From Candidatus Cloacimonadales bacterium (GTDB taxonomy: Bacteria; Cloacimonadota; Cloacimonadia; Cloacimonadales; JAFGVF01), in NCBI GenBank assembly GCA_963663475.2, contig CAXXJV010000001.1, positions 2,400,001 to 2,464,000 of the forward strand: a stretch of 64,000 bases of DNA, read 5' to 3'. The notes beneath the pieces are model-generated. The model worked only from the letters and a program-made list of their open reading frames with translations, searched no databases and was not told the DNA's origin. Positions 1,378-57,056 of this stretch are shown in pieces; the first letter of the stretch is position 1; every line of letters begins with the position of its first letter. Made by a program: the position numbers and the translations under genes.

Positions 1378-2852
1378 TGAAACTCTATTACAATGCTAAA
1401 TTTTATTCTATGGATTCTACTAAGCAAATTTATCAGGCTATCTTAGTTGAAGATGGACGGATAAAAGAATGTTTTGCTAGCAAACCTAAAATCTCTAGTC
1501 CGGAATATATTGATCTTAAGGGAGCTACAGTTTTTCCAGGTTTCACAGATTCTCATACCCATTCTTTTGAAGGTGGACTTTATAGCATGGGTGCTGATCT
1601 TCAAAAGGCAACTTCTCTAGCTGAAGTATTTGAACTTATTGATAACTCTCCGCTTATAGGTAATTATAAGTTTGCTTTTGGTTTAGATGAGAATCAACTC
1701 CAGGAAAAAAGATTTCCTAGTCTGCAAGAATTAGATAAAATAGTTCCTAATAACCCTCTTCTACTCAGAAGAATAGATGGGCATTCCTGTATAATAAATA
1801 GTCAAGCCTTATCTATTATCAAGTTTCCTCATGATTTACCTAGCAAATTTAATGGTTTACTGAAAAAAGAGGATAATGATATTGCAGCCCATACCTTTCA
1901 TAACACCCTAACAGATGATGCTATAATTGCAGCTTACCAAGCAGCTGATAAGTTAGCTATTAAAGCAGGTCTTACTTGTGTTCACACTATGATTGGAGAT
2001 GCTCAATATTCTTATAATCACTTTCCTCTAATTCAAGATAATCTGGCTAGATTTACAACTCAATTTATTTTATACCCTCAATTCTTTGATGTAGATAAAG
2101 CTTTAGATAGATCTTCTAAAAGAATAGGAGGCTGTATATTAGCTGATGGATCTTTCGGCTCTCATACCGCTGGTCTTACTAAAGCCTATCAAGACCAAAA
2201 TGACAATTATGGTTCATTGTACCAGACTGATGAATTTTGGGAAAGCTTTATTTGGGATGCACACAAGAAAGACCTGCAAGTTGGAGTTCATTGTATTGGT
2301 GATGCAGCAATAAGTCAAATTGTTAATGCATATGTCAAAGCCCAAAAAAGAGCTGAAAAAGACCTTAGACATCAAATAATCCATAATGAATTAATGAGTG
2401 ATGAGTCTTTACAACTTATGAAAGACTATAATATTTCAGCAGTAATGCAACCTATGTTTGATCATTTATGGGGCGGACCTGATAATTTTTATTCTCAAGT
2501 TTTAGGATTAGAAAGAAGTATGCAAACTAACAGATTCAAAACTATACTTGACAAAGGGGTTTTGTTAGCAGGTTCTTCTGACTGGTACATAACTAGTCTT
2601 AACATCTTAGACCAGTTACAAGCTGCTATATCTCATCATAATCCCCAAGAAAAACTTTCTCTTGAACAAGCAATCCAAATTTACACAAGAAATGCTAGCA
2701 GACTTGTAGGTAATGATTCTGAAGGATTTCTCAAAGTTGGTAATTTAGCCAATATGACTGTTTTAGAAAATGACCCCTTCACTAAAGGTAATTTCTTAGA
2801 CAATTCCATCTTAGCAGTCATCTCCCAAGGGGAGCTTATTCATGTTTATTAA
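1377..2852 (+). CDS. Amidohydrolase 3 family (YtcJ-like) metal-dependent hydrolase
   Basis: PGFTDSHTH, DGH, ADGSFGSHTA, HCIGD, SSDW motifs; start overlaps maf stop. Confidence 0.85.
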   Translation: MKLYYNAKFYSMDSTKQIYQAILVEDGRIKECFASKPKISSPEYIDLKGATVFPGFTDSHTHSFEGGLYSMGADLQKATSLAEVFELIDNSPLIGNYKFAFGLDENQLQEKRFPSLQELDKIVPNNPLLLRRIDGHSCIINSQALSIIKFPHDLPSKFNGLLKKEDNDIAAHTFHNTLTDDAIIAAYQAADKLAIKAGLTCVHTMIGDAQYSYNHFPLIQDNLARFTTQFILYPQFFDVDKALDRSSKRIGGCILADGSFGSHTAGLTKAYQDQNDNYGSLYQTDEFWESFIWDAHKKDLQVGVHCIGDAAISQIVNAYVKAQKRAEKDLRHQIIHNELMSDESLQLMKDYNISAVMQPMFDHLWGGPDNFYSQVLGLERSMQTNRFKTILDKGVLLAGSSDWYITSLNILDQLQAAISHHNPQEKLSLEQAIQIYTRNASRLVGNDSEGFLKVGNLANMTVLENDPFTKGNFLDNSILAVISQGELIHVY

Positions 2853-3339
2853 ACGAAGAGCAAAGTTCTTAATAGAGCAAGAGTTAGATCTTTTTCCTAA
2901 AGCTACTTTAACTGACTTTTATAAGCTCTTTTATCAAAACTGCTGCGGTAGTCAACATTATCTGCAAGATCTAAATTTTATAAAAAACAGAATTCTTTCA
3001 GAAATTCAGGATATTGAGGAAAAATGTTTTATCTATCCTACTTATGATATTTCTTATCGTTTGAAGGTTAGCAGAATTAGTCTATACTCTATTAAAGTTG
3101 GAAAATATGATATTAGTTTCATAGCTGATGCCTTTTATAAATTAGCAATTGACCCTAATAGATTGACATGTCAAGCTTGGTTAGCCGAATGGGAAAAAAT
3201 TCAAGAACTTATTTTCAATTTAAAACCAGCTATTTTTGATGATTTAACAAGCAAGGATATTTCGCAAGGTCAAGCTCTTCATCATAGTGATATTTATAGA
3301 CTGAATTATCATCCTCATTACAGAATTTGTTCAATTTAG
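2842..3339 (+). CDS. Hypothetical protein with conserved-looking YKLxYQ..G..H and HSxxYR.xY.PxYR motifs
   Basis: 165-aa ORF overlapping the upstream gene; motifs DFYKLFYQNCCGSQH and HHSDIYRLNYHPHYR. Confidence 0.6.
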   Translation: MFIKRRAKFLIEQELDLFPKATLTDFYKLFYQNCCGSQHYLQDLNFIKNRILSEIQDIEEKCFIYPTYDISYRLKVSRISLYSIKVGKYDISFIADAFYKLAIDPNRLTCQAWLAEWEKIQELIFNLKPAIFDDLTSKDISQGQALHHSDIYRLNYHPHYRICSI

Positions 3340-3343
3340 ATTT

Positions 3344-4243
3344 ATGAGATTAGAAGAACATATAAATTTACTATCTCAAAATTGGAAGAAAAAATACAGG
3401 TGTAAGGTGATGAAAGTTGGACTTAGTCTTGGACTTGTCTGCCCTAATCGGGCCAAGGGATCTTGCATATTCTGCCTACCATCTACCTTTACTGATGCAA
3501 TTAATGATGGCAAGGATATTTCTTTAGAAGAGCAGATAAACCATTTGATACCTAAAATTCAAGGTAATACTAAGGCTAAAAAATTTATAGCTTACCTACA
3601 AGATGAAACTTCTACAGCTTGTTCTCCATCTTTCTTAAAAGATTCACTTGTTAAAATTATAAAAAGCAATATATTTGAAGAAGTGATTATCTCTACCCGT
3701 CCAGATTATCTAAATCATGATATTTTAACAGCTATTAAGAGTGTTGATCTTCCTGTTACTATTGAACTAGGAATGCAAACAATTCATGATGAATCGCTTA
3801 AATGGTTAAATAGAAATCATGAGCACCAGGATAGTATTAAGGCTATTAAACTTTGTGAAGAGTATAATATTCCTCTGGGTATTCACCTAATTTTAGGAAT
3901 TCCTAGTGAAGACAAGTCTATGATTCTGGAAACTATCGATTTCATCAACAAGTATAAAATCATAAAAGATGTCAAATTTCATAACTTAGTAATTTTTGCT
4001 GGGACAAGATTAGCCCAAATTTACTCTGAAGATAAAATCATTAAGTACACAGATTACCTAAACTTACTTGCATTAGTACTTGGTAATCTTTCACCTGAGA
4101 AAACTGTTTCTCGCTTATTCACGTCTAACCTCAGAAGGGACTTAATAGCCATACACCCCTTCCCAGGTATTAAACAAATTTGGCTAAAAGATTTATGGCA
4201 CATTCTTAAGATGAAAAATATTTATCAAGGATCTTTGCTGTAA
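3344..4243 (+). CDS. Radical SAM protein, TIGR01212/YhcC-like
   Basis: CPNR..G.CIFC, STRPD, IELGMQT, LNRNH, HLILGIP motifs. Confidence 0.85.
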   Translation: MRLEEHINLLSQNWKKKYRCKVMKVGLSLGLVCPNRAKGSCIFCLPSTFTDAINDGKDISLEEQINHLIPKIQGNTKAKKFIAYLQDETSTACSPSFLKDSLVKIIKSNIFEEVIISTRPDYLNHDILTAIKSVDLPVTIELGMQTIHDESLKWLNRNHEHQDSIKAIKLCEEYNIPLGIHLILGIPSEDKSMILETIDFINKYKIIKDVKFHNLVIFAGTRLAQIYSEDKIIKYTDYLNLLALVLGNLSPEKTVSRLFTSNLRRDLIAIHPFPGIKQIWLKDLWHILKMKNIYQGSLL

Positions 4244-4375
4244 GAACTTTCGTAAAGTCTTAAATGATAGTTAACTGCAAGCCATATTAAAATATAGTAA
4301 ATAAAATTCTTTACAAATTTAAGAATATCTTATATAATGTTATATAAATATGAAAATAATATAATAGGGTACCAT

Positions 4376-7090
4376 ATGAAAAAAATATTGATCGTATTAT
4401 TAGTGATATTTGCTTGGTCGTTCGCACAAGCTCTTATCGATTTAAACACAGCGACACTGGAAGAATTAAAAACTCTTCCTATCACTGAAAAACAAGCTCA
4501 AGATATTTTTGAGTATCGTGAATTTGTTTCTTTCTTTGGGAGTATTTTTGATCTAAGAAAGATTGATTCTATTGATCAAAAAACTATGCTTAGAATCAGA
4601 GAGCAAGTAAAAATCTCACGCTATACTGATACTGACGAAGTTGATGAAAGAAGAGAAGAGATTGGCTATTTGCTTGAGCGACTAGGCGAAAGTGAAGGTT
4701 CTTCAGAAGGCATGAATGATGTTTGGCAAGACTATTTAATGTCTCCCCAAAATATCAATGATATGCTCTATGAAGACTTAATTTCTATTCCTAACGTATC
4801 AGCTGTTGATGCTGTTTCTATCCTTAAGAAACGCAAGAACGGCGATAGATTTGGTAATATTCGTGATATTAGAACCACCCAAGGCATGTCCTATTATGGC
4901 TACTCTAATCTTAGAAGATATGTTTTCTTTGATGATGCAAAAGCTTTAAACAGGGTTTATCTTGATTACCAGTTTAAAATGGAATCTCAAGACTTTGAAG
5001 AAGGTTCAACCGATATGTATAAAGAACCTCAGATCAGAGATACCTACAATGTAGATTATGATGATTTACCAGCAATCTATAACGAAATAAGAAAAAGAGA
5101 TAACTCTTATTATGGTTATTTCAACTTAGATAAATATAATCCAGCTGTTTCTCATAAATTCAGAGCCCGTTATGGTAATAAATATAAATTTGGCTTAATG
5201 GATTTCTCAGATAAAACAATCGACCCTACAATTGATAAGGGTTGGACAAATCTAAGAGATGATGCTAAGTACTACGCTGGTTATGAAGATAAATTCAAAG
5301 CTTATAATGGCTTTGGAGGATCTTACTTTGTAAAAGCTTATGCAGGACATTACAGAGTTACTTATGGTGAAGGCCTTACAATGGAAAATACAGACTACTA
5401 TTCACCACGTAAGACAGGCTTAGGCTTTTCAAAAAGAATCATGGGTATTACTCCAGACTTATCAAAAAGCCAATCAACCGCTCTCAGAGGTGGCGCTGTA
5501 GAAGTTAAAAATGACTACTTTACCTCTTCGTTCTTCTATTCAAAAGCTAAAAAAGATGCTCTTGTTTACATGGAAAAATATGTTGATCAAAATGGTAAAA
5601 CTTGGTCTGTACCTGTTAAAGATGAAAATGGTAATTATCAAGTTTTATCTTACATAAACTCTACCATAAGATTTGATAATGATGACCTAGCTGATGCTGA
5701 GGCCCACTTCAATGAAGAACTAGGTATTCAAGAAGAACAGCATACTGGTGATTTTGCAGGTTATGATGTTGATTATATGAGCTTAGCTCCAAGAAAGAAT
5801 ATCATTAATGAACAAATCATCGGTGGTCATGTTCAATACAATCCAATCATTGGTACCCGTTTAGGTTTTACTACCTATACCGCTACTTACGATAATGCCG
5901 AGTTTGTTGTTCCTGAAAGTGATGATTTAATGCGTCTTTTGATCCGTAATAACAATAACTACAATAAGTGGAAACAACCTAATTCTTCTTTAGCAGCTAT
6001 GTACTCAACTAAAACTGATAAATATGATCGTGACTATAGACGAGTTATCGGTTTCGATGGTGGTACTGTTATTAATAATGTATCAATCGATGGTGAATAT
6101 GCTGAACTTAGTGTTGATGGTGACGATATGAAACTAGGTGATGATCCTAAAGCTTATCTGATTAAAGCCCATACTCAATATAATAATTTCTATTTCTTAA
6201 CCCTTTATAGAAATTATGATTTGGACTTCGATAACCCATACTCTAATGCCTTTGCAGAACAACCTAAATACGATGATACAGTTCTTGATAAAAACATCTA
6301 TGCCCTTGTTAACCCTCTTGTTTCTGATGTTTATCAAAACTCATCTCAAGCTCAAGCTGAAAAAGGTGTTTATTTTGAAACACGTTATCAATTCCATAGA
6401 AACTTTATTCTTGGCAGAACTTACCTTGATATCTTTGAAAGAGTTGCTGATAGTAGAAACACTGTAAGATTCCAAAGTGAATTAGAATACAGAGCCTTCC
6501 ATCAACTTCGCTTTAAATTAAAATATAAGAATCAAGTTAACAGATATGCAGACGATGCTGAAAGAGGTGTTTCTAATACTCAAGAGTATACTCTAAATGC
6601 TCGTATGCTAATGTCTAACAGAAATTTCTTTGAGATTGAATATCGCTATAATACTGTTAAATCTCCCCCATACGTATCTTTAACAAACCCTGTTGAAGAA
6701 GGAGATAATTCTTACGCCCAATCTATGTCCTATATGAATGGAGATTATATTGCAGCAAACTATACCCACTATTTTAGTCCAAAACTTAAAGTCAAAGGTT
6801 CAGTTTGTTTCTGGAATGGTTATGACATCTCTCATTGGGATTGGGAAGATATCGAACTTGATTTCATGGGAGATAGAGGATTTAAGTACTGGTTCTCAGT
6901 CCAAAACAATATTTCCAAAAATATCTACCTAACTTTTAAATACAAAACTAAAATATATAGAACTCAAGAACTCTTCATCAGAAAGTACAATACAACTGAT
7001 GATCCAGGATTCCAAGAGATGCCAACCTACTATGATAGAGTTGAAAAGAAAGATAACACATTTAGATTACAAATTGATTATAGATTTTAA
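4376..7090 (+). CDS. Outer-membrane beta-barrel protein with two N-terminal ComEA-like helix-hairpin-helix domains
   Basis: Signal peptide MKKILIVLL..AQA (ATG 4376); IDLNTATLEELKTLP and NINDMLYEDLISIPNV HhH repeats; alternating aromatic strands; C-terminal beta-signal FRLQIDYRF. Confidence 0.8.
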   Translation: MKKILIVLLVIFAWSFAQALIDLNTATLEELKTLPITEKQAQDIFEYREFVSFFGSIFDLRKIDSIDQKTMLRIREQVKISRYTDTDEVDERREEIGYLLERLGESEGSSEGMNDVWQDYLMSPQNINDMLYEDLISIPNVSAVDAVSILKKRKNGDRFGNIRDIRTTQGMSYYGYSNLRRYVFFDDAKALNRVYLDYQFKMESQDFEEGSTDMYKEPQIRDTYNVDYDDLPAIYNEIRKRDNSYYGYFNLDKYNPAVSHKFRARYGNKYKFGLMDFSDKTIDPTIDKGWTNLRDDAKYYAGYEDKFKAYNGFGGSYFVKAYAGHYRVTYGEGLTMENTDYYSPRKTGLGFSKRIMGITPDLSKSQSTALRGGAVEVKNDYFTSSFFYSKAKKDALVYMEKYVDQNGKTWSVPVKDENGNYQVLSYINSTIRFDNDDLADAEAHFNEELGIQEEQHTGDFAGYDVDYMSLAPRKNIINEQIIGGHVQYNPIIGTRLGFTTYTATYDNAEFVVPESDDLMRLLIRNNNNYNKWKQPNSSLAAMYSTKTDKYDRDYRRVIGFDGGTVINNVSIDGEYAELSVDGDDMKLGDDPKAYLIKAHTQYNNFYFLTLYRNYDLDFDNPYSNAFAEQPKYDDTVLDKNIYALVNPLVSDVYQNSSQAQAEKGVYFETRYQFHRNFILGRTYLDIFERVADSRNTVRFQSELEYRAFHQLRFKLKYKNQVNRYADDAERGVSNTQEYTLNARMLMSNRNFFEIEYRYNTVKSPPYVSLTNPVEEGDNSYAQSMSYMNGDYIAANYTHYFSPKLKVKGSVCFWNGYDISHWDWEDIELDFMGDRGFKYWFSVQNNISKNIYLTFKYKTKIYRTQELFIRKYNTTDDPGFQEMPTYYDRVEKKDNTFRLQIDYRF

Positions 7091-7102
7091 TTGGAGGATT
7101 TA

Positions 7103-8521
7103 ATGTATAGAAAAATTATATTTTTATTACTAACAGTGATGGCTGTTGGAACTTTAAGTAGTTATTCGTTGAATGAGTTTCATTACGGATATAAATTAAA
7201 CACATATGATGCTACAGCTGTTAGTATGGGCAACACTGGAACTGCTGGTTCTTCAAACCCGTTTGGTATAACACTTAATGCCATTAACTCTCTTAATCAA
7301 GAGAATACTTTTGCTTTCGAGACTTCTATTAATGCTAGTAAAGTTGAAGACAAAAGATCTATACCAATGTATAATTCCTTCAACTCTTACATAAATGAAT
7401 CAACATATACTGCACAAGAAGAAATCTTCTATAATCTTGCCGCTGCTCTTACATTTAAACAGCAACTTAATAAAGCCAATAGTATTGGTTTTGGTCTATA
7501 CATGACTCCAAAATATAGCTTTGCTGGTGATTATAATGAAGAGGTTAGAAATAACGATAACTCCAATGATGATAATTTCCCTGCAAAAATCGCTATAAAC
7601 TCAATTGATAATGAAGGAAATCTCTATGCCTACGGTTTCTCTATGGCCTACAAATATTCTTTCGAAAACTTGACTTATTTAAAAAGTTTAGCTTTAGGAG
7701 CAAATATTGAAATGCTTACTGGTAATGCAAAATCAGATAAAACAATTAGATTTACTGATTGGGCTCATACTACTGCAGGTTATGGTAACCTACCTGATTA
7801 TCAAGAAAAATATGACAGAGACTTATCAGGTATAGCAAGTCAGTTGAGTATGAACTACCAACTTAACCATAGAGCAACCTTCTCTCTTGTATATTCACCA
7901 AAAACAACCATCGAAGTAGATGCTAGTTCTAGTATTAATAATTACCTTACTTTTGCAGATTCTACTAGCATGCTTGACTACACCTATACTGGTGCTGATT
8001 CACTTAAGCATGAAATGATGATGGCTGATTATGACCTACCATCTTCCTTCAAATTAGCTTTCCAGCTTAAGCCACGTAACGTGCTTAAAACTACTTTTAA
8101 TGTTGAGGCTGAATTGGTACGTTGGTCTGAAACAAACAAACTATTCGAAGATAAATTTAACTACTACTTAGGTGTCGAACATAAAATTATCGAAACTGTA
8201 CCTGTAAGATTAGGCTTTTCATCTACACAAAGTTATGACATTGCTTATGATAATGAGTATGCATATGCTGTTGAGTTAATGACTCCAAGCGTTGCCCTTG
8301 GTACTGGTTTTGAAATTTCAAAATCACTTAGAGCTGATCTAGGATTTACTTACGGTTTTAGAAAATTTGAAACTCTAGACCTATTCATGGATGAATATTA
8401 TGATTATTCATCACTCTGGCCTAATACTCATATTAATCTCCAAAATCGCGATTGGTCAAATCCTGATACTGTTAAAGAAAACATCTTTGACTTTATGTTC
8501 TCATTAACTTTGGATATTTAA
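7103..8521 (+). CDS. Outer-membrane beta-barrel, FadL/PorV-like
   Basis: GGAGG RBS before ATG 7103; signal peptide; DATAVSMGNTG..NP N-terminal motif typical of FadL/PorV-type barrels; beta-strand pattern to the C-terminus. Confidence 0.6.
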   Translation: MYRKIIFLLLTVMAVGTLSSYSLNEFHYGYKLNTYDATAVSMGNTGTAGSSNPFGITLNAINSLNQENTFAFETSINASKVEDKRSIPMYNSFNSYINESTYTAQEEIFYNLAAALTFKQQLNKANSIGFGLYMTPKYSFAGDYNEEVRNNDNSNDDNFPAKIAINSIDNEGNLYAYGFSMAYKYSFENLTYLKSLALGANIEMLTGNAKSDKTIRFTDWAHTTAGYGNLPDYQEKYDRDLSGIASQLSMNYQLNHRATFSLVYSPKTTIEVDASSSINNYLTFADSTSMLDYTYTGADSLKHEMMMADYDLPSSFKLAFQLKPRNVLKTTFNVEAELVRWSETNKLFEDKFNYYLGVEHKIIETVPVRLGFSSTQSYDIAYDNEYAYAVELMTPSVALGTGFEISKSLRADLGFTYGFRKFETLDLFMDEYYDYSSLWPNTHINLQNRDWSNPDTVKENIFDFMFSLTLDI

Positions 8522-8545
8522 CCTACTAAAACAATAAGGTAAATT

Positions 8546-10186
8546 ATGAAAAAATTAATTATAATTATATCCCTCCTAAGCTTCTTTGCTCTTAATGCTG
8601 AAGATCTTAGACTGGATATTATGTTTACTAATGATGTTCATGGAGGAATATCTCGTGACCAAGCAACCTTTATGAATCCAGAATTTCCACCCCGTTTAGG
8701 TGGTGGAGCTTCTCATGCCACATTAATTAAACATGTAAGAAGCCTGGCTAATGATAAAAGAGATAACTTGCTCCTTGATGCTGGTGACTTCTGGCAAGGA
8801 AAACCAATAGGTACTGTTACCAATGGTGAAGCAATCATAGAATACTATAATATGATAGGTTATGATGCTTTAACTATCGGTAACCATGAGTATGACATTA
8901 AAGAAAAGGAAATTGTAGAAACTCTCGAAATGGCTAATTTCCCTATTCTTTCTTGTAATATCGTAGATAAAAACACTGGAAAACTAGTTGATTATGTGCA
9001 ACCTTACGTCATCATTGAAAAAATGGGAGTTAAAATTGGTTTAATAGGTCTTACAACTATCGATACAAAACTAATGAGCTTCCCTGATAATATTGAAGGT
9101 ATTGACTTTTTAGATGAAATTGAATCGCTAAAAAAATATATTCCTATCGTTAAATCTGAAGGTGCAGATATTATAATTGTCCTTGGACATATGGGGCTTC
9201 CTTACGATCCTGCAGCTTCTTATGAAAAAAGATTTGTTAATGATTCTATGGAGAAAAAACAAAGATACTATGGTTGGGATTCTCAAGAAATCCTCCACTT
9301 TGTCCCTGGTATAGACCTTTTAGTAGGTGGTCATATGCACAAGGGTTTTTCTGAACCATGGGTTGACCCTGTAACTCAAGGTATGGCTGTTCAAGGTTAT
9401 GCTTTTGGATCAAATGTAGGTTGGATTACTTTAAAGATAGATGAAGAGACTAAAACTTTATCTGGTTATGAGCTTCCTTCACTATCAAATGGTCTTATGA
9501 TAACCATGTTTGAAGATGAATTCCCTCTTGATCCTGAGATCAATGCTGCTATTGAAAAGAATAGGAAACTAGCTGAAGCAGGAATGGATGATGTAATCGG
9601 TGTGGCTGAAGTACATCTTCATAGACAAAATGTGGAAGCTCAATCACCTATGGGAAATACTGTCGCTGATGCTATGAGACTGCAAACTAATGCTGACTTC
9701 TCTTTCCTAAATTTAGGTGGTATTAGAGCAGAAATTGGAGCTGGTCCTGTTACTTACAGAGATATCTTTGCAGTTATGCCATTTGATAATCAATTGATTA
9801 CTTTTGAATGTGATGGTAGATTCTTGAAGCAAGTTATTGAAACAAGAATTGAAGGTTCAAGAGCTGGTATGATTTGCTCTGGAGCAAAAGTTACTTTTAG
9901 TAGAGAGAGAGAAAACTTTGATAGAATTACTGAACTTATTATCGGTGGTGAAGAATGGGATCCTGATAAAATTTATACAGTCGCTACTACCGACTTCCTT
10001 ATGGAAGGTAATGCTGGGTTAACCCTCTTAACTAAAGTTCCTGAAGATAAAATTTCCAATAACTATCTGAATCTTCGAGATGCTATTGCTAATCACTTTA
10101 AGCAAAACTCTCCAATAAAGACTAGAATCGACGACCGCTGGATTAGAGATGATAACTCTACTCCTAAAGAATATTTAAGGAAATAA
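8546..10186 (+). CDS. Exported 5'-nucleotidase / metallophosphoesterase (UshA-like)
   Basis: Signal peptide; TNDVHG, DAGD, GNHEYD, GHMG, GGHMH, NLGGIR, MPFDN motifs. Confidence 0.92.
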   Translation: MKKLIIIISLLSFFALNAEDLRLDIMFTNDVHGGISRDQATFMNPEFPPRLGGGASHATLIKHVRSLANDKRDNLLLDAGDFWQGKPIGTVTNGEAIIEYYNMIGYDALTIGNHEYDIKEKEIVETLEMANFPILSCNIVDKNTGKLVDYVQPYVIIEKMGVKIGLIGLTTIDTKLMSFPDNIEGIDFLDEIESLKKYIPIVKSEGADIIIVLGHMGLPYDPAASYEKRFVNDSMEKKQRYYGWDSQEILHFVPGIDLLVGGHMHKGFSEPWVDPVTQGMAVQGYAFGSNVGWITLKIDEETKTLSGYELPSLSNGLMITMFEDEFPLDPEINAAIEKNRKLAEAGMDDVIGVAEVHLHRQNVEAQSPMGNTVADAMRLQTNADFSFLNLGGIRAEIGAGPVTYRDIFAVMPFDNQLITFECDGRFLKQVIETRIEGSRAGMICSGAKVTFSRERENFDRITELIIGGEEWDPDKIYTVATTDFLMEGNAGLTLLTKVPEDKISNNYLNLRDAIANHFKQNSPIKTRIDDRWIRDDNSTPKEYLRK

Positions 10187-10189
10187 GCA

Positions 10190-10870
10190 ATGATAATATT
10201 AGCTATTGATAGTTCAAATAGCTCTGGTAGCATTGCTATCATTAAGAAGAATGACCTAGTATTCAGCTCATTCTTCAATATAAAGATTACGCATTCAGAG
10301 ACTTTAATGCCCGAGATTCATCGGGCATTGAGTCTGTGTAACCTACTTACTTCTGATTTAGATGCCATTGCTATTGCCCAAGGACCAGGCTCTTTCACTG
10401 GTTTGAGAATTGGCTTAGCTACTGCTAAAGGCATTGCATTTGCTCATGAGATTCCTCTTATTCCAATCTCTTCTCTGAAAATTGTCGCTATGAATTACTA
10501 CGGGATAAGTAAAGATATTCTAGTTATGCAAGATGCAAAAATGAAAGAAGTCTATATTGCCCTCTATGATTCAAAATTAAATGAAATCATCCCCCCAACC
10601 TGTATTAAACCTTGTGATGTAGCTAATTTAATTAAAAATCCAACTATTGCTGTTGGTTCTGGTATTGATATCTATAAAGATACCTTACAGGATAACCCTT
10701 ATATTGAGATTAATAATATCTTAGAAAAAAACCTAGCAAAGGCAGAATCAATGTTTTCTATAATTCATATTGAAAATATTCATCCTTCTTTTGACTTCGA
10801 TTTTAATTCTAAACTTCAACCTTATTATATTAGAAAATCTCAAGCTGAAGTAAATCGAAATCAAGCTTAA
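10190..10870 (+). CDS. tsaB: tRNA threonylcarbamoyladenosine biosynthesis protein TsaB
   Basis: ILAIDSS, HSE.LMP, GPGSFTGLRIG, P.YIR motifs. Confidence 0.95.
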   Translation: MIILAIDSSNSSGSIAIIKKNDLVFSSFFNIKITHSETLMPEIHRALSLCNLLTSDLDAIAIAQGPGSFTGLRIGLATAKGIAFAHEIPLIPISSLKIVAMNYYGISKDILVMQDAKMKEVYIALYDSKLNEIIPPTCIKPCDVANLIKNPTIAVGSGIDIYKDTLQDNPYIEINNILEKNLAKAESMFSIIHIENIHPSFDFDFNSKLQPYYIRKSQAEVNRNQA

Positions 10871-10913
10871 TCAGATTATTAAAAATCTGACTAATTGAAA
10901 ATCTGGAGAAATT

Positions 10914-11951
10914 ATGTTATTACAAAGATTGTTTAGTAAAATATCAAATGATATAGCCATTGACTTAGGTACTGCAAATACCTTAGTATATAAAAAGAAT
11001 TCTGGTATTGTTATTAATGAGCCTTCTGTTGTATCTCTTGCAACTGACACTAAGAAAGTGCTCGCTATTGGCGCTGATGCTAAAGAAATGCTTGGCAGAA
11101 ATCCTAATGAAGTTACTGTTATTAAACCCCTAAAAGATGGAGTTATAGCAGACTTTCAGGTTACCGAAATTATGCTTAGAAATTTAATACTAAGGGCTCA
11201 GAAAAATAAGTTCCATATAAGACCTAGAGTTATTGTCTGTGTTCCTTCGGGAATTACGGAAGTTGAAAAAAGAGCTGTTAGAGACTCTGCTCTACATGCA
11301 GGATCACGTGAAGTTTATCTTGTATCTGAACCTATTGCTGCTGCTATTGGAGCTGACTTAATGATTCACAAACCCTATGGTAACTTAGTTATGGATATTG
11401 GGGGTGGTACTTCTGAAATAGCTGTTATATCTCTCTCACATATTGTTGTACATAACTCTATCAGAGTTGGTGGAGACTCTATAGATAGAGATATCATTAA
11501 TCATCTAAGAAAAAAGAATAACCTACATGTAGGTATTCAAACTGCCGAAGATATTAAAAAGAAAATTGGATCTTGTGTCCCACTCAAAGAAGAATTATCT
11601 ATGAATGTTGCAGGAAGAGATATTGTCAGCGGATATCCAGTAACTGTTCAAATCAATTCTGAAGAAATCAGAGAGGCAATAAGTGATACTGTCGATATAA
11701 TGATTGATGCTATAAAAAAACTTTTTGAGAAAACTGCACCAGAACTAGCCTCAGATATCGCTGAAAGAGGTGTTTTCTTAACAGGAGGAGGTGCTTTACT
11801 TAGAGGACTTGATACTAAAATTCAAACTACAGTTGACCTACCTGTTCATGTTGTTCCTGACCCCTTAACCTGTGTTGTAAAAGGTTCAGGTAAAATTTTA
11901 GATAACTTAGAAACTTACAGAGAAGTATTGATTAAAAAAATTGAAGACTAA
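10914..11951 (+). CDS. mreB: Rod shape-determining protein MreB
   Basis: IDLGTANT, EPSVV, DIGGGT, LTGGGALL. Confidence 0.97.
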   Translation: MLLQRLFSKISNDIAIDLGTANTLVYKKNSGIVINEPSVVSLATDTKKVLAIGADAKEMLGRNPNEVTVIKPLKDGVIADFQVTEIMLRNLILRAQKNKFHIRPRVIVCVPSGITEVEKRAVRDSALHAGSREVYLVSEPIAAAIGADLMIHKPYGNLVMDIGGGTSEIAVISLSHIVVHNSIRVGGDSIDRDIINHLRKKNNLHVGIQTAEDIKKKIGSCVPLKEELSMNVAGRDIVSGYPVTVQINSEEIREAISDTVDIMIDAIKKLFEKTAPELASDIAERGVFLTGGGALLRGLDTKIQTTVDLPVHVVPDPLTCVVKGSGKILDNLETYREVLIKKIED

Positions 11952-55532: not shown

Positions 55533-57056
55533 TTAGTGTCTGAAGTGTCTTGTCGAGGTCATTACCATAGCGATGTTATGTTCATTACAAGCATCAATAA
55601 CCTCAGGATCTCCTTTAGAACCACCTGGTTGAATGACAGCAGTAACTCCGTATTGAACAAGTTGATCAATAGAGTCTCTGAAAGGGAAGAAACCGTCAGA
55701 AGCACAGATTGAATTTTCTAAAGACAGGGAGAATTTTTTTGCTTTAGAGATTGCTATTTCAGTTGAATCTATTCGAGAAGTTTGTCCAATACCTAGTCCA
55801 AGAGTTTGATCATTGCTAGTAAAAGCTACAGCATTTGATTTAAGAGAAGCAACACAGTTCCAGCCAAATTTAAGAGCTTGCCATTCTTTTTCTGTAGGTT
55901 GTCTTTTAGTAGCTACCTGCCAGTTATCAGGATTATCTTTATCAATATCGTTGTCTTGGACTAAGAATCCATTCATACATGAGACAACATTAGAACGCTT
56001 TTTAAGCAAGTCTAGTTTATCTACATTAAAAGAAAGAAGTCTTCTATTTTTCTTTTTTTGTAGAAACTCAATAACACCTTGATCATATTCAGGAGCAATT
56101 ATTATTTCGGTAAAGATTTTATTAATTGCCTTAGCAGTGGTTAGGTCTAGACATCTATTAACAATAACAATACCTCCGAAAGGAGAGAGAGTATCAGTAG
56201 CAAAGGCCTTTTCGTAAGCATCTAGTAAGTTTAATCCAGAGGCAATGCCACAAGGGTTAGTATGTTTAAAAATAGCTACAGTAGGATATTCCTTAAACTT
56301 CATGATTGTTTTTAAGGCAGCGTCAATGTCAAGTAGGTTATTATAAGAAAGTTGCTTGCCGTGTAGAACTTCAATTATGTCTTCTTCTTGATAGAAGTGA
56401 GCTTTCTGATGAGGATTTTCTCCATAGCGAAGGGTATCATTTAGTTTCATAGAGATATTAAGTTGCGAAAAATCCTGATTAAGATTCATGAAGTAATTTG
56501 CAATAGCAGTGTCATAATCCGCAGTATGCATAAAAGCTTTCTGGGCCAAGTAGAGTCTATATTCCTTAGTATCTAGTTTATTTTCAATAACTTCAATTGT
56601 CTTATCATAATCTGCACTATCTGTAATAACATAAACAGAGTCATAGTTTTTAGCAGCAGACCTAATTAAGGTTGGTCCACCTATATCAATATTTTCAATG
56701 ATTTCAGCATGAGTGGAGTCTGGATTATCTAGAGTTTTCTTAAATGGGTAAAGATTAACGCATACTATATCGATTAAATGAATATCGAGTTGCTGAGCTT
56801 GTTCAAGGTGCTGAGGTATTTGGCGATTAGCAAGTATTCCACCATGAATTAAAGGATTTAAGGTTTTGACTCTTCCATCCATAATTTCAGGAAACTTGGT
56901 AATATCACTAACATAGAGGACTTCAATCCCATTATCATTAAGATATTTGGCTGTTCCACCACTAGAGATAATTTCATAATCTAATTTAATCAATTTTTGG
57001 GCAAAGGGTAAAATGTTTTTTTTGTCTGAAAGACTAATCAGAGCTCTCTTCTTCAT
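55533..57056 (-). CDS. purH: Bifunctional AICAR transformylase/IMP cyclohydrolase
   Basis: RALISLSDK, GRVKTL, IDIGGP, LRYGENPHQ, SDGFFPF, RHFRH; GGAG RBS before ATG 57056. Confidence 0.97.
   Translation of the reverse strand: MKKRALISLSDKKNILPFAQKLIKLDYEIISSGGTAKYLNDNGIEVLYVSDITKFPEIMDGRVKTLNPLIHGGILANRQIPQHLEQAQQLDIHLIDIVCVNLYPFKKTLDNPDSTHAEIIENIDIGGPTLIRSAAKNYDSVYVITDSADYDKTIEVIENKLDTKEYRLYLAQKAFMHTADYDTAIANYFMNLNQDFSQLNISMKLNDTLRYGENPHQKAHFYQEEDIIEVLHGKQLSYNNLLDIDAALKTIMKFKEYPTVAIFKHTNPCGIASGLNLLDAYEKAFATDTLSPFGGIVIVNRCLDLTTAKAINKIFTEIIIAPEYDQGVIEFLQKKKNRRLLSFNVDKLDLLKKRSNVVSCMNGFLVQDNDIDKDNPDNWQVATKRQPTEKEWQALKFGWNCVASLKSNAVAFTSNDQTLGLGIGQTSRIDSTEIAISKAKKFSLSLENSICASDGFFPFRDSIDQLVQYGVTAVIQPGGSKGDPEVIDACNEHNIAMVMTSTRHFRH

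Follow-up and report, generated by a model that had tools for sequence, protein, structure and literature searches.

Sediments and anoxic systems contain much phosphorus, nitrogen and carbon in the form of extracellular DNA, and two routes are known for its passage through the outer membrane, a pilus with a secretin and a TonB-dependent transporter of Bacteroidales, the latter known since 2025. In Vibrio cholerae, UshA or periplasmic 5'-nucleotidases are said to be used for growth on extracellular DNA. The ddbABCDEF locus of Bacteroides thetaiotaomicron is needed for exogenous DNA to be depleted and encodes nucleases, the TonB-dependent transporter DdbC and a surface DNA-binding protein with DUF5689, DdbD, according to its description (PMC12478041), which also ties a group of Riemerella anatipestifer transformation genes to the DNA-utilization loci. 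These genes encode, according to the report on them, an outer-membrane barrel, a DUF5689/DUF5017 surface protein and a periplasmic helix-hairpin-helix (HhH) protein (PMC8459023). A third source describes FadL-type barrels of the superphylum as partners of larger barrels, the known pairs being PorV-SprA and BamG-BamA (PMC12578637). The window analyzed here, a 64,000-nucleotide stretch of a Cloacimonadales genome (G000:C1:2400001-2464000; genome of 3.3 Mb, rated 99% complete), includes three adjacent genes, named P1, P2 and P3, that encode an HhH-barrel fusion, a second barrel and a 5'-nucleotidase. On balance, P1-P2-P3 can be considered the downstream core of a conserved system, five to six genes in size, for capture and salvage of nucleic acids at the outer membrane, whose other components are a large surface protein (A), a further small barrel (B) and, in some lineages, a metallo-beta-lactamase (MBL)-fold hydrolase. 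The features of the three genes, and the location of A and B in the same genome, are as follows.

4376..7090, + strand: P1, an exported 904-aa outer-membrane protein with a signal peptide, two HhH modules and a barrel.
4430..4615, + strand: HhH module 1 of P1, residues 19-80, located by an HHH_3 match and superposition on ComEA.
4745..4945, + strand: HhH module 2 of P1, at residues 124-190; it is divergent and carries NVSPxDAxAI and PGLSYYGYRNLR as family motifs.
4955..7087, + strand: beta-barrel of P1, residues 194-904, located from the AlphaFold2 model and its DSSP string.
7103..8521, + strand: P2, an exported 472-aa FadL/BamG-type barrel with an N-terminal hatch.
8546..10186, + strand: P3, an exported 546-aa 5'-nucleotidase of the UshA/CD73 superfamily.
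G000:C1:1236017-1238287 (L098:10018-12291): the A-B pair, outside the window and 1.17 Mb from P1.

The ddb DNA-utilization locus is the closest known functional analogue of this cassette. Both combine a surface protein that has a DNA-binding fold like the oligonucleotide/oligosaccharide-binding (OB) fold, an outer-membrane barrel and periplasmic or secreted nucleic-acid enzymes, and the Riemerella genes share with it an HhH protein in the periplasm, where the HhH modules of P1 are also predicted to be. The cassette differs from ddb in that P1 is not of the TonB-dependent type, the HhH modules are fused to the barrel, there are two extra FadL/PorV-type barrels (B and P2), the surface protein has a tail like those of the type IX secretion system (T9SS) instead of a lipid anchor, and the constant enzyme is the 5'-nucleotidase, nucleases being only sometimes present in the locus. 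No description of an HhH-barrel fusion family or of the cassette was found in the literature. If the proposed role is true, the cassette would represent a third design for DNA passage through the outer membrane, built from parts that have no characterized member.

The three open reading frames (ORFs) lie on the + strand at 4337..7090, 7091..8521 (TTG start) and 8546..10186. A start of P1 at position 4376 (MKKILIV...) produces a 904-aa protein with a normal signal peptide, and the start of P2 was placed at the ATG at 7103, giving 472 aa. The genes are thus separated by 12 nt (7091-7102) and 24 nt (8522-8545), in agreement with the preliminary description, which had pointed to three co-oriented exported proteins with this spacing. 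All three proteins begin with a signal peptidase I (SPI)-type signal peptide, and on reading the sequences a lipobox cysteine was seen in none of them. No terminator-like site was found between the three genes.

The same description had proposed that P1 fuses two ComEA-like HhH modules to a large barrel, a structure borne out by the Pfam HHH_3 matches and the AlphaFold2 model. Residues 19-78 match HHH_3 (PF12836) with an E value of 1.2e-14 and 54.5 bits (cut-off, 27), and module 1 of the model superimposes on the ComEA structure 8dss with a Z score of 12.0 and a root mean square deviation (rmsd) of 1.1 Å over 64 residues, 33% of them identical. Module 2 is recognized by helices 132-179 in the model, by column conservation and by a second HHH_3 stretch, which is weak and surfaces only at E values up to 10. 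The P1 family profile aligns in two separate stretches with the HhH pair of EEPD1 (9yi2), and residues 1-180 of the model are helical, consisting of the two HhH modules and a helical linker between them. P1 has in common with ComEA (8dss, 2duy) the fold of module 1, an HHH_3 match above the cut-off and a predicted periplasmic location, and differs from it in that the HhH region is fused to an outer-membrane barrel while ComEA is free or anchored in the inner membrane.

The model of P1, obtained with an input alignment of 59 sequences, has a predicted local distance difference test (pLDDT) value of 84.1 and a predicted template modeling (pTM) score of 0.81. Its C-terminal part is a beta-barrel, as had been claimed, in which we counted 24 membrane strands from the DSSP string, and the protein ends in ...IDYRF, including the beta-signal YRF. 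The periplasmic turns in the model have 2-7 residues and the outer loops are long; because of this strand topology both termini, and hence the HhH modules, are predicted to be in the periplasm. The most conserved blocks of the family are found in loops 330-369 and 615-661, with the sequences GNYR..GQGL.MENTD....R..G.G..KR..GI.GDLS and YR.YD..FDNPY.R.FSE...P.PQAE, and these loops are candidates for a constriction of the pore. The residues invariant in the family are G324, G357, G372, E479, R612 and E662.

The best fold matches of the P1 barrel are the ushers FimD (Z 15.3) and PapC (Z 14.6), with 367-369 residues aligned at an rmsd of 5.1-5.3 Å, followed by MtrB (Z 12.7), and they represent a likeness among large barrels with no sequence relation. 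P1 differs from FimD and PapC in that it has neither the usher plug nor the N- and C-terminal usher domains, and it is not accompanied by chaperone or pilin genes. Structures of TonB-dependent transporters scored below the ushers (Z 10-12), and a Pfam search of P1 at E values up to 10 for the TonB-dependent receptor families gave no Plug or TonB_dep_Rec match. Foldseek returned generic large barrels with TM scores of about 0.25, and when the P1 profile was compared with the sequences of solved structures only the HhH part, and not the barrel, found a match. LptD, BamA/TamA, a SlpA/OmpM-type tether and MtrB were considered as possible identities of P1 and rejected, as there was no family match, the fold scores were those of generic barrels, and POTRA, SLH and jellyroll domains are all missing from P1.

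The model of P2 (pLDDT 83.3) has the FadL fold, a barrel of 14 strands, so the earlier assignment of the second gene to a FadL/PorV-like barrel holds. N-terminal helices (residues 37-64) precede the barrel. The comparison with FadL gave a Z score of 33.4 over 336 residues at an rmsd of 4.0 Å (Foldseek E value, 3e-15), those with three BamG structures gave Z scores of 31.1-32.3 and the lowest rmsd values (3.0-3.7 Å), and that with PorV a Z score of 27. The best Protein Data Bank match of the P2 family profile is BamG (9hiv_F, E value 1.3e-4). The alignments begin at model residues 17-18 for BamG and at residue 25 for FadL, so that any N-terminal extension is short. P2 itself has no Pfam match, PF03349 included, even at E values up to 10, while PF03349 (FadL/Toluene_X) was detected in 6 of 29 P2 homologs. 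As in the SprA-PorV and BamA-BamG pairs, a FadL-type barrel is encoded together with a much larger barrel, to which it presumably binds, the difference being that P1 is unrelated by sequence to either SprA or BamA; P2 could be a further case of a FadL-type barrel acting as partner to a larger one. Prediction of a complex between P2 and P3 gave a score of 0.00 (mark, 0.32), which is no evidence either way.

P3 includes the two domains expected of an exported UshA-like nucleotidase, as had been claimed, Metallophos (E value 5e-15, 56.8 bits) and 5_nucleotid_C (E value 1e-34, 120.1 bits), both above the Pfam cut-offs. Its closest solved relative is 3ivd (E value 2.4e-53), and the metal-site motifs NDVHG, GDFWQG, GNHEYD and GGHMH are legible in the alignment. 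P3 shares with UshA this two-domain architecture and the metal-site motifs; it is not a UshA ortholog, falling below the equivalog model NF007109 (198 bits; cut-off, 600), and differs also in being fixed in an operon with two outer-membrane barrels. It has a plain SPI signal with no sorting tail, and it was the sole copy found in its own genome with the P3 query.

A survey of 121 Cloacimonadota genomes found P1 and P2 in the same 111, P1 always as a single copy, and P3-like genes in 114. Of these 111 genomes, 106 have P2 next to P1 and 107 have P3 next to P2, and the three genes follow one another on one strand in 103, with median gaps of 33 nt between P1 and P2 and 38 nt between P2 and P3 (range of the latter, 12-981 nt). 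Seven of the eight genomes that depart from full adjacency have the genes on separate contigs, and in the remaining genome, G041, P2 and P3 are set apart by a 3.2-kb insert. The ten genomes that have neither P1 nor P2 are six members of family f12 plus G043, G069, G097 and G101. The f12 genomes (G002, G005, G008, G017, G023 and G064) are reduced, with sizes of 1.5-1.6 Mb; P1, P2 and B were not found in them with these queries, and in two of them the only P3-like gene is a distant one with 33% identity.

The B ortholog is present as a single copy in 109 of the 121 genomes. It was not found in nine of the ten genomes lacking P1, the tenth being G043, nor in G015, G074 and G110, which hold P1. 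In family f13, the other main lineage, B is located 0.3-1.7 kb upstream of P1 in all 12 genomes. The order A-B-P1-P2-P3 is contiguous in two f13 loci (L103 and L104), each of which has the whole cassette within the stretch, and a third (L105) shows the tail end of A at the start of the contig followed by B-P1-P2-P3, with a 3.2-kb insert before P3. Because the five genes are contiguous in f13, the gene order in the window appears to be that of an ancestral five-gene cassette that was split in two in this genome.

To follow the family outside the phylum, 1.84 billion representative proteins were searched with P1, which produced 620 matches with E values of at most 1e-3, 86 of them at most 1e-30. 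Many of the distant relatives are full-length, with 23-38% identity. Their source labels include Eisenbacteria and Krumholzibacteriia; a few labels (Saccharimonadales, Dependentiae) are doubted, and the protein Atlas indicates Fidelibacterota/SAR406 as a P1 carrier, which is a lead only. A broad alignment of 51 distant relatives was too diverse for a locus search, and an 8-row alignment on an Eisenbacteria homolog was used in its place to fetch 80 metagenome loci, near-duplicates among them (for example L045/46/47, L041/42 and L024/33), whose ORFs were scanned with profiles. Where the locus left room of 600 nt or more, P2 was found downstream of P1 in 70 of 73 cases; where it left 2.2 kb or more, P3 was found in 43 of 51. 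The nucleotidase linkage, which had been set beforehand as the check on the proposal, is therefore kept within the phylum, in the 103 of 111 genomes mentioned above, and for the most part in these distant loci.

On the upstream side, B, a barrel of about 290 aa, lies directly before P1 in 53 of the 56 distant loci with room for it, and A, a large protein, precedes B in 41 of 41. The best NCBIfam match of B is the PorV/PorQ family NF033709 (L070 copy, 76.3 bits, E value 3e-21; cut-off, 90). The domains detected in 28 scanned A proteins were the Lamin tail domain (LTD, 20 proteins), the OB-fold PF01336 (12), a FlgD_ig-type C-terminal domain (9) and DUF5689 (PF18942; one protein, E value 3.3e-6). 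A was further matched to the model of the extracellular nuclease ExeM/NucH, in the N-terminal part of that model (E value 1.3e-15), and no nuclease catalytic domain was detected in A by the profile scans. Seven of the 80 loci (L016-L021 and L057) have a gene for an MBL-fold hydrolase between P2 and P3, or behind P2 at the contig end, with an eighth, weak match in L058; in L019 and L020 the contig ends inside this gene, before any P3. Its best NCBIfam match is the ComEC C-terminal domain TIGR00361 (E value 4.9e-17), and it is a candidate for the periplasmic nuclease of the cassette. Two examples were located by the profile scan.

L016:5537-6946, distant locus: MBL hydrolase.
L018:6286-7632, distant locus: MBL hydrolase.

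In the genome that includes the window, B (C1:1237442-1238287, 282 aa) is the sole good homolog, with 35% identity to the L070 copy (E value 1e-47), and it scores 58.9 bits (E value 6e-16; cut-off, 90) with NF033709. It is preceded by A (G000:C1:1236017-1237429, 471 aa), whose sequence can be aligned to that of the L044 A protein over its OB-fold and C-terminal part (E value 2e-12). This copy of A matches the ExeM/NucH N-terminal region and, weakly, T9SS sorting-domain models; it matches neither PF18942 nor PF01336. The genome includes a homolog of the T9SS translocon SprA (2133 aa; C1:1092671-1093936), and about 40 places match the tail of A, a FlgD_ig/Por_Secre_tail-like segment of about 80 aa in which many ORFs end. 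The organism thus has a T9SS, with cargo proteins in large number. Genes for a thymidine kinase (L098:6813-7370) and a PNP/UDP-type nucleoside phosphorylase (L098:8217-9026) were observed 3-5 kb upstream of the A-B pair (C1:1232812-1235025); DivIVA, DksA-like and LspA genes intervene, and the proximity may be due to chance.

The folds, the domain content and the gene order conserved across phyla are the basis from which we infer the substrate, the topology and each of the binding and transport steps in the following model. The surface protein A, with its LTD, OB-fold and T9SS-type tail, would bind nucleic acid outside the cell, held at the surface by the PorV/PorQ-like barrel B. P1, with its usher-like barrel, would be the pore, its conserved loops probably lining or constricting it and its HhH modules hanging in the periplasm, and P2 would be its fixed partner, as PorV is for SprA and BamG for BamA. 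The polymer or oligomers would then be cut in the periplasm, in some lineages by the ComEC-like MBL hydrolase of the operon, and P3 would release nucleosides and phosphate from the nucleotides. Uptake of the nucleosides into the cell could proceed through Bmp-type ATP-binding cassette systems, as the genome has two Bmp nucleoside-binding proteins; a NupC-type nucleoside transporter was looked for and no PF07662 match was found in the genome. Import of nucleic acid, or of fragments of it, by this system seems to us somewhat more probable than not. The capture-and-salvage role assigned to the three genes in the preliminary description is well supported by their context, and is strengthened because the neighbors A, B and the MBL hydrolase have nucleic-acid homologies or a conserved linkage; the parts of that proposal which find no support are the DNA ratchet and the independence from a pilus and from TonB. 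The passage of long DNA threaded through P1 and held by the HhH modules is a doubtful version of the model.

Several observations weigh against a role in nucleic-acid uptake, and some of them concern the HhH region. G-h-G hairpins and a basic surface are the marks of DNA-binding HhH modules. Residues 1-190 of P1 include no G[LIVM]G hairpin, compared to four in the ComEA-like protein of the same genome (206 aa, membrane-anchored, with modules of net charge +2 and +3), and the net charge of residues 19-190 is -9, with -2 for module 1 and +2 for module 2. These characteristics extend to the family: across the 59-sequence alignment module 1 has a median net charge of -3, the linker one of -5 and module 2 one of +2, and at the hairpin positions G-h-G is replaced in module 1 by I-[ST]-x and [GS]-I-[TD], and in module 2 by N-V-S-P and G-L-S. 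P1 also stays well under the ComEA models of NCBIfam, with 45 bits for the full-length model TIGR01259 (cut-off, 152.35) and 36.8 for TIGR00426 (cut-off, 53.1). The homology argument for DNA binding is thus removed because of the missing G-h-G hairpins and the acidic charge; as judged from the residues at these positions, the P1 modules seem unlike those of a working ComEA, although they might still bind DNA, and the "built-in DNA ratchet" formerly attributed to P1 is not supported by the comparison with the organism's own ComEA.

The remaining adverse points come from the loci and from the rest of the genome. P3 is not found downstream in 8 of the 51 distant loci: L070, L073 and L077 have P2 with no P3 within about 6.5 kb, and L054-L056 keep A, B and P1 while P2 and P3 are both missing, P1 being followed there by genes for succinyl-CoA ligase, KsgA, RecO and a class II tRNA synthetase; the other two of the eight are L019 and L020, which stop within the MBL gene. 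Because L054-L056 hold only A-B-P1, the P1 barrel can exist in the absence of its usual downstream partners. The distant-locus counts overstate independence, since many of the loci are close relatives or duplicates, and the matches of B and of the A tail are below the NCBIfam curated cut-offs. No nuclease was found among the scanned genes of the three-gene unit and its flanks, and a search of the genome for a stand-alone ComEC-like MBL hydrolase matched only ComEC itself. As the genome has a secretin (C1:532714), ComEC (C1:847190) and the ComEA-like gene, a minus-strand ORF (L099 485-1105) with its HHH_3 matches at C1:2279002-2279427, all outside the window, the organism would not be devoid of a conventional DNA route; the secretin sits in a pilMNOPQ-like gene row, as judged from ORF sizes only. 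Purine auxotrophy as the reason for the system was dropped because PurH (AICARFT/IMPCHase) is encoded at window positions 55743-56657 on the - strand, with which de novo purine synthesis is likely to be present and salvage not forced. Finally, no experiment on any member of the P1 family was found in the literature.

Part of this evidence would fit an explanation in which a T9SS-type module for attachment of surface proteins has P1 and P2 as its partners in structure or biogenesis, with no nucleic acid passing through P1, the HhH modules serving in protein binding or dimerization, and the nucleotidase acting on nucleotides that enter through other porins. FadL-type barrels are known as partners and not as transporters in the PorV-SprA and BamG-BamA pairs (PMC12578637), P2 resembles BamG no less than FadL, the acidic HhH region has no G-h-G hairpin, and A-B-P1 persist without P2 and P3 in L054-L056. 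We nevertheless consider this explanation unlikely: it leaves four independent nucleic-acid homologies around P1 in distant lineages (the HhH modules, A, the MBL hydrolase and the 5'-nucleotidase), and an enzyme unrelated to the barrels would hardly be expected to sit as P3 does, 12-981 nt (median 38) after P2 in 107 of 111 genomes. The tight linkage of a 5'-nucleotidase, which destroys nucleotides and preserves no DNA, also makes it quite unlikely that P1 is the outer-membrane stage of natural transformation, admitting DNA for ComEC and recombination as in R. anatipestifer, with nutrition being secondary. This possibility is favored by the requirement in Riemerella for a barrel, a DUF5689/DUF5017 protein and an HhH protein, as stated in the two reports (PMC8459023; link to ddb, PMC12478041), by the presence of ComEC in the genome and by the protein with a ComEC-like MBL domain in some loci; however, a secretin in its pilMNOPQ-like row and a canonical membrane-anchored ComEA are already available in the genome, and ComEC is unlinked to the cassette in every locus examined.

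Very improbable, in our opinion, is a function of P1 as an outward pore for release of DNA, for example into a DNA-containing matrix, or for export of A or P3. The best fold matches of the barrel are indeed the secretion pores FimD and PapC (Z 15.3 and 14.6), and A is encoded beside P1 in most lineages, but the match is to the bare barrel only, neither the plug nor the periplasmic domains of an usher being matched, A is provided with an export route of its own by its T9SS-like tail and the SprA of the genome, and the SPI signal of P3 is a plain one, not accompanied by a sorting tail. An extension of the capture-and-salvage model is possible, though tentative: P1, B, P2 and A could constitute a new class of outer-membrane nucleic-acid translocon that functions with no type IV pilus, secretin or TonB, is driven by capture and degradation in the periplasm, and serves as the main route for feeding on extracellular DNA in several uncultivated phyla of sediments, digesters and the deep ocean. 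The cassette is single-copy in nearly all sampled Cloacimonadota and has relatives in other uncultivated phyla, and if the interpretation in terms of DNA fails, a conserved set of three barrels still needs a function.

The AT-rich gap that had been noted before P1 was located at 4244-4375 (132 nt), inside a stretch with a G+C content of 0.30, and includes the best sigma-70-like match in 3900-11000.

4310..4338, + strand: promoter-like site TTTACA-17-TATAAT, 11 of 12 positions.

Because the number of sigma-70-like sites in this region (29) is not above that in shuffled sequences (32.6 +/- 5.5), the site is best taken as a consensus match only. Near-identical pieces of P1, P2 and P3, with 0-2 differences, occur in contigs from three metatranscriptome runs of one study; the contigs are short and of low depth, and since DNA can be present in such libraries they are weak evidence, indicating the occurrence of the sequences in RNA libraries rather than transcription or an operon transcript. 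The contigs of two of these runs (X1 and X3) skip 99-100 nt within window positions 4198-4299, in the gap between the radical SAM gene and P1, which is probably a strain variant of the intergenic region.

The flanking genes that were scanned encode a radical SAM enzyme, a 165-aa protein with no family match and TsaB, whose gene begins 4 nt past the end of P3. The ORF for the 165-aa protein is located 5' of the radical SAM gene, at window positions 2842-3339, and has no Pfam match. Elsewhere in the genome, four more ORF regions match ExeM/NucH (C1:2743687-2744286, C1:2748715-2749059, C1:230259-235562 and C1:967542-968264): an ORF of 310 aa corresponds to the catalytic region, and those of 906, 2783 and 241 aa to the N-terminal OB-like part, the 2783-aa ORF including several Lamin tail domains as well. 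These ORFs possibly encode secreted nucleases or DNA-binding proteins.

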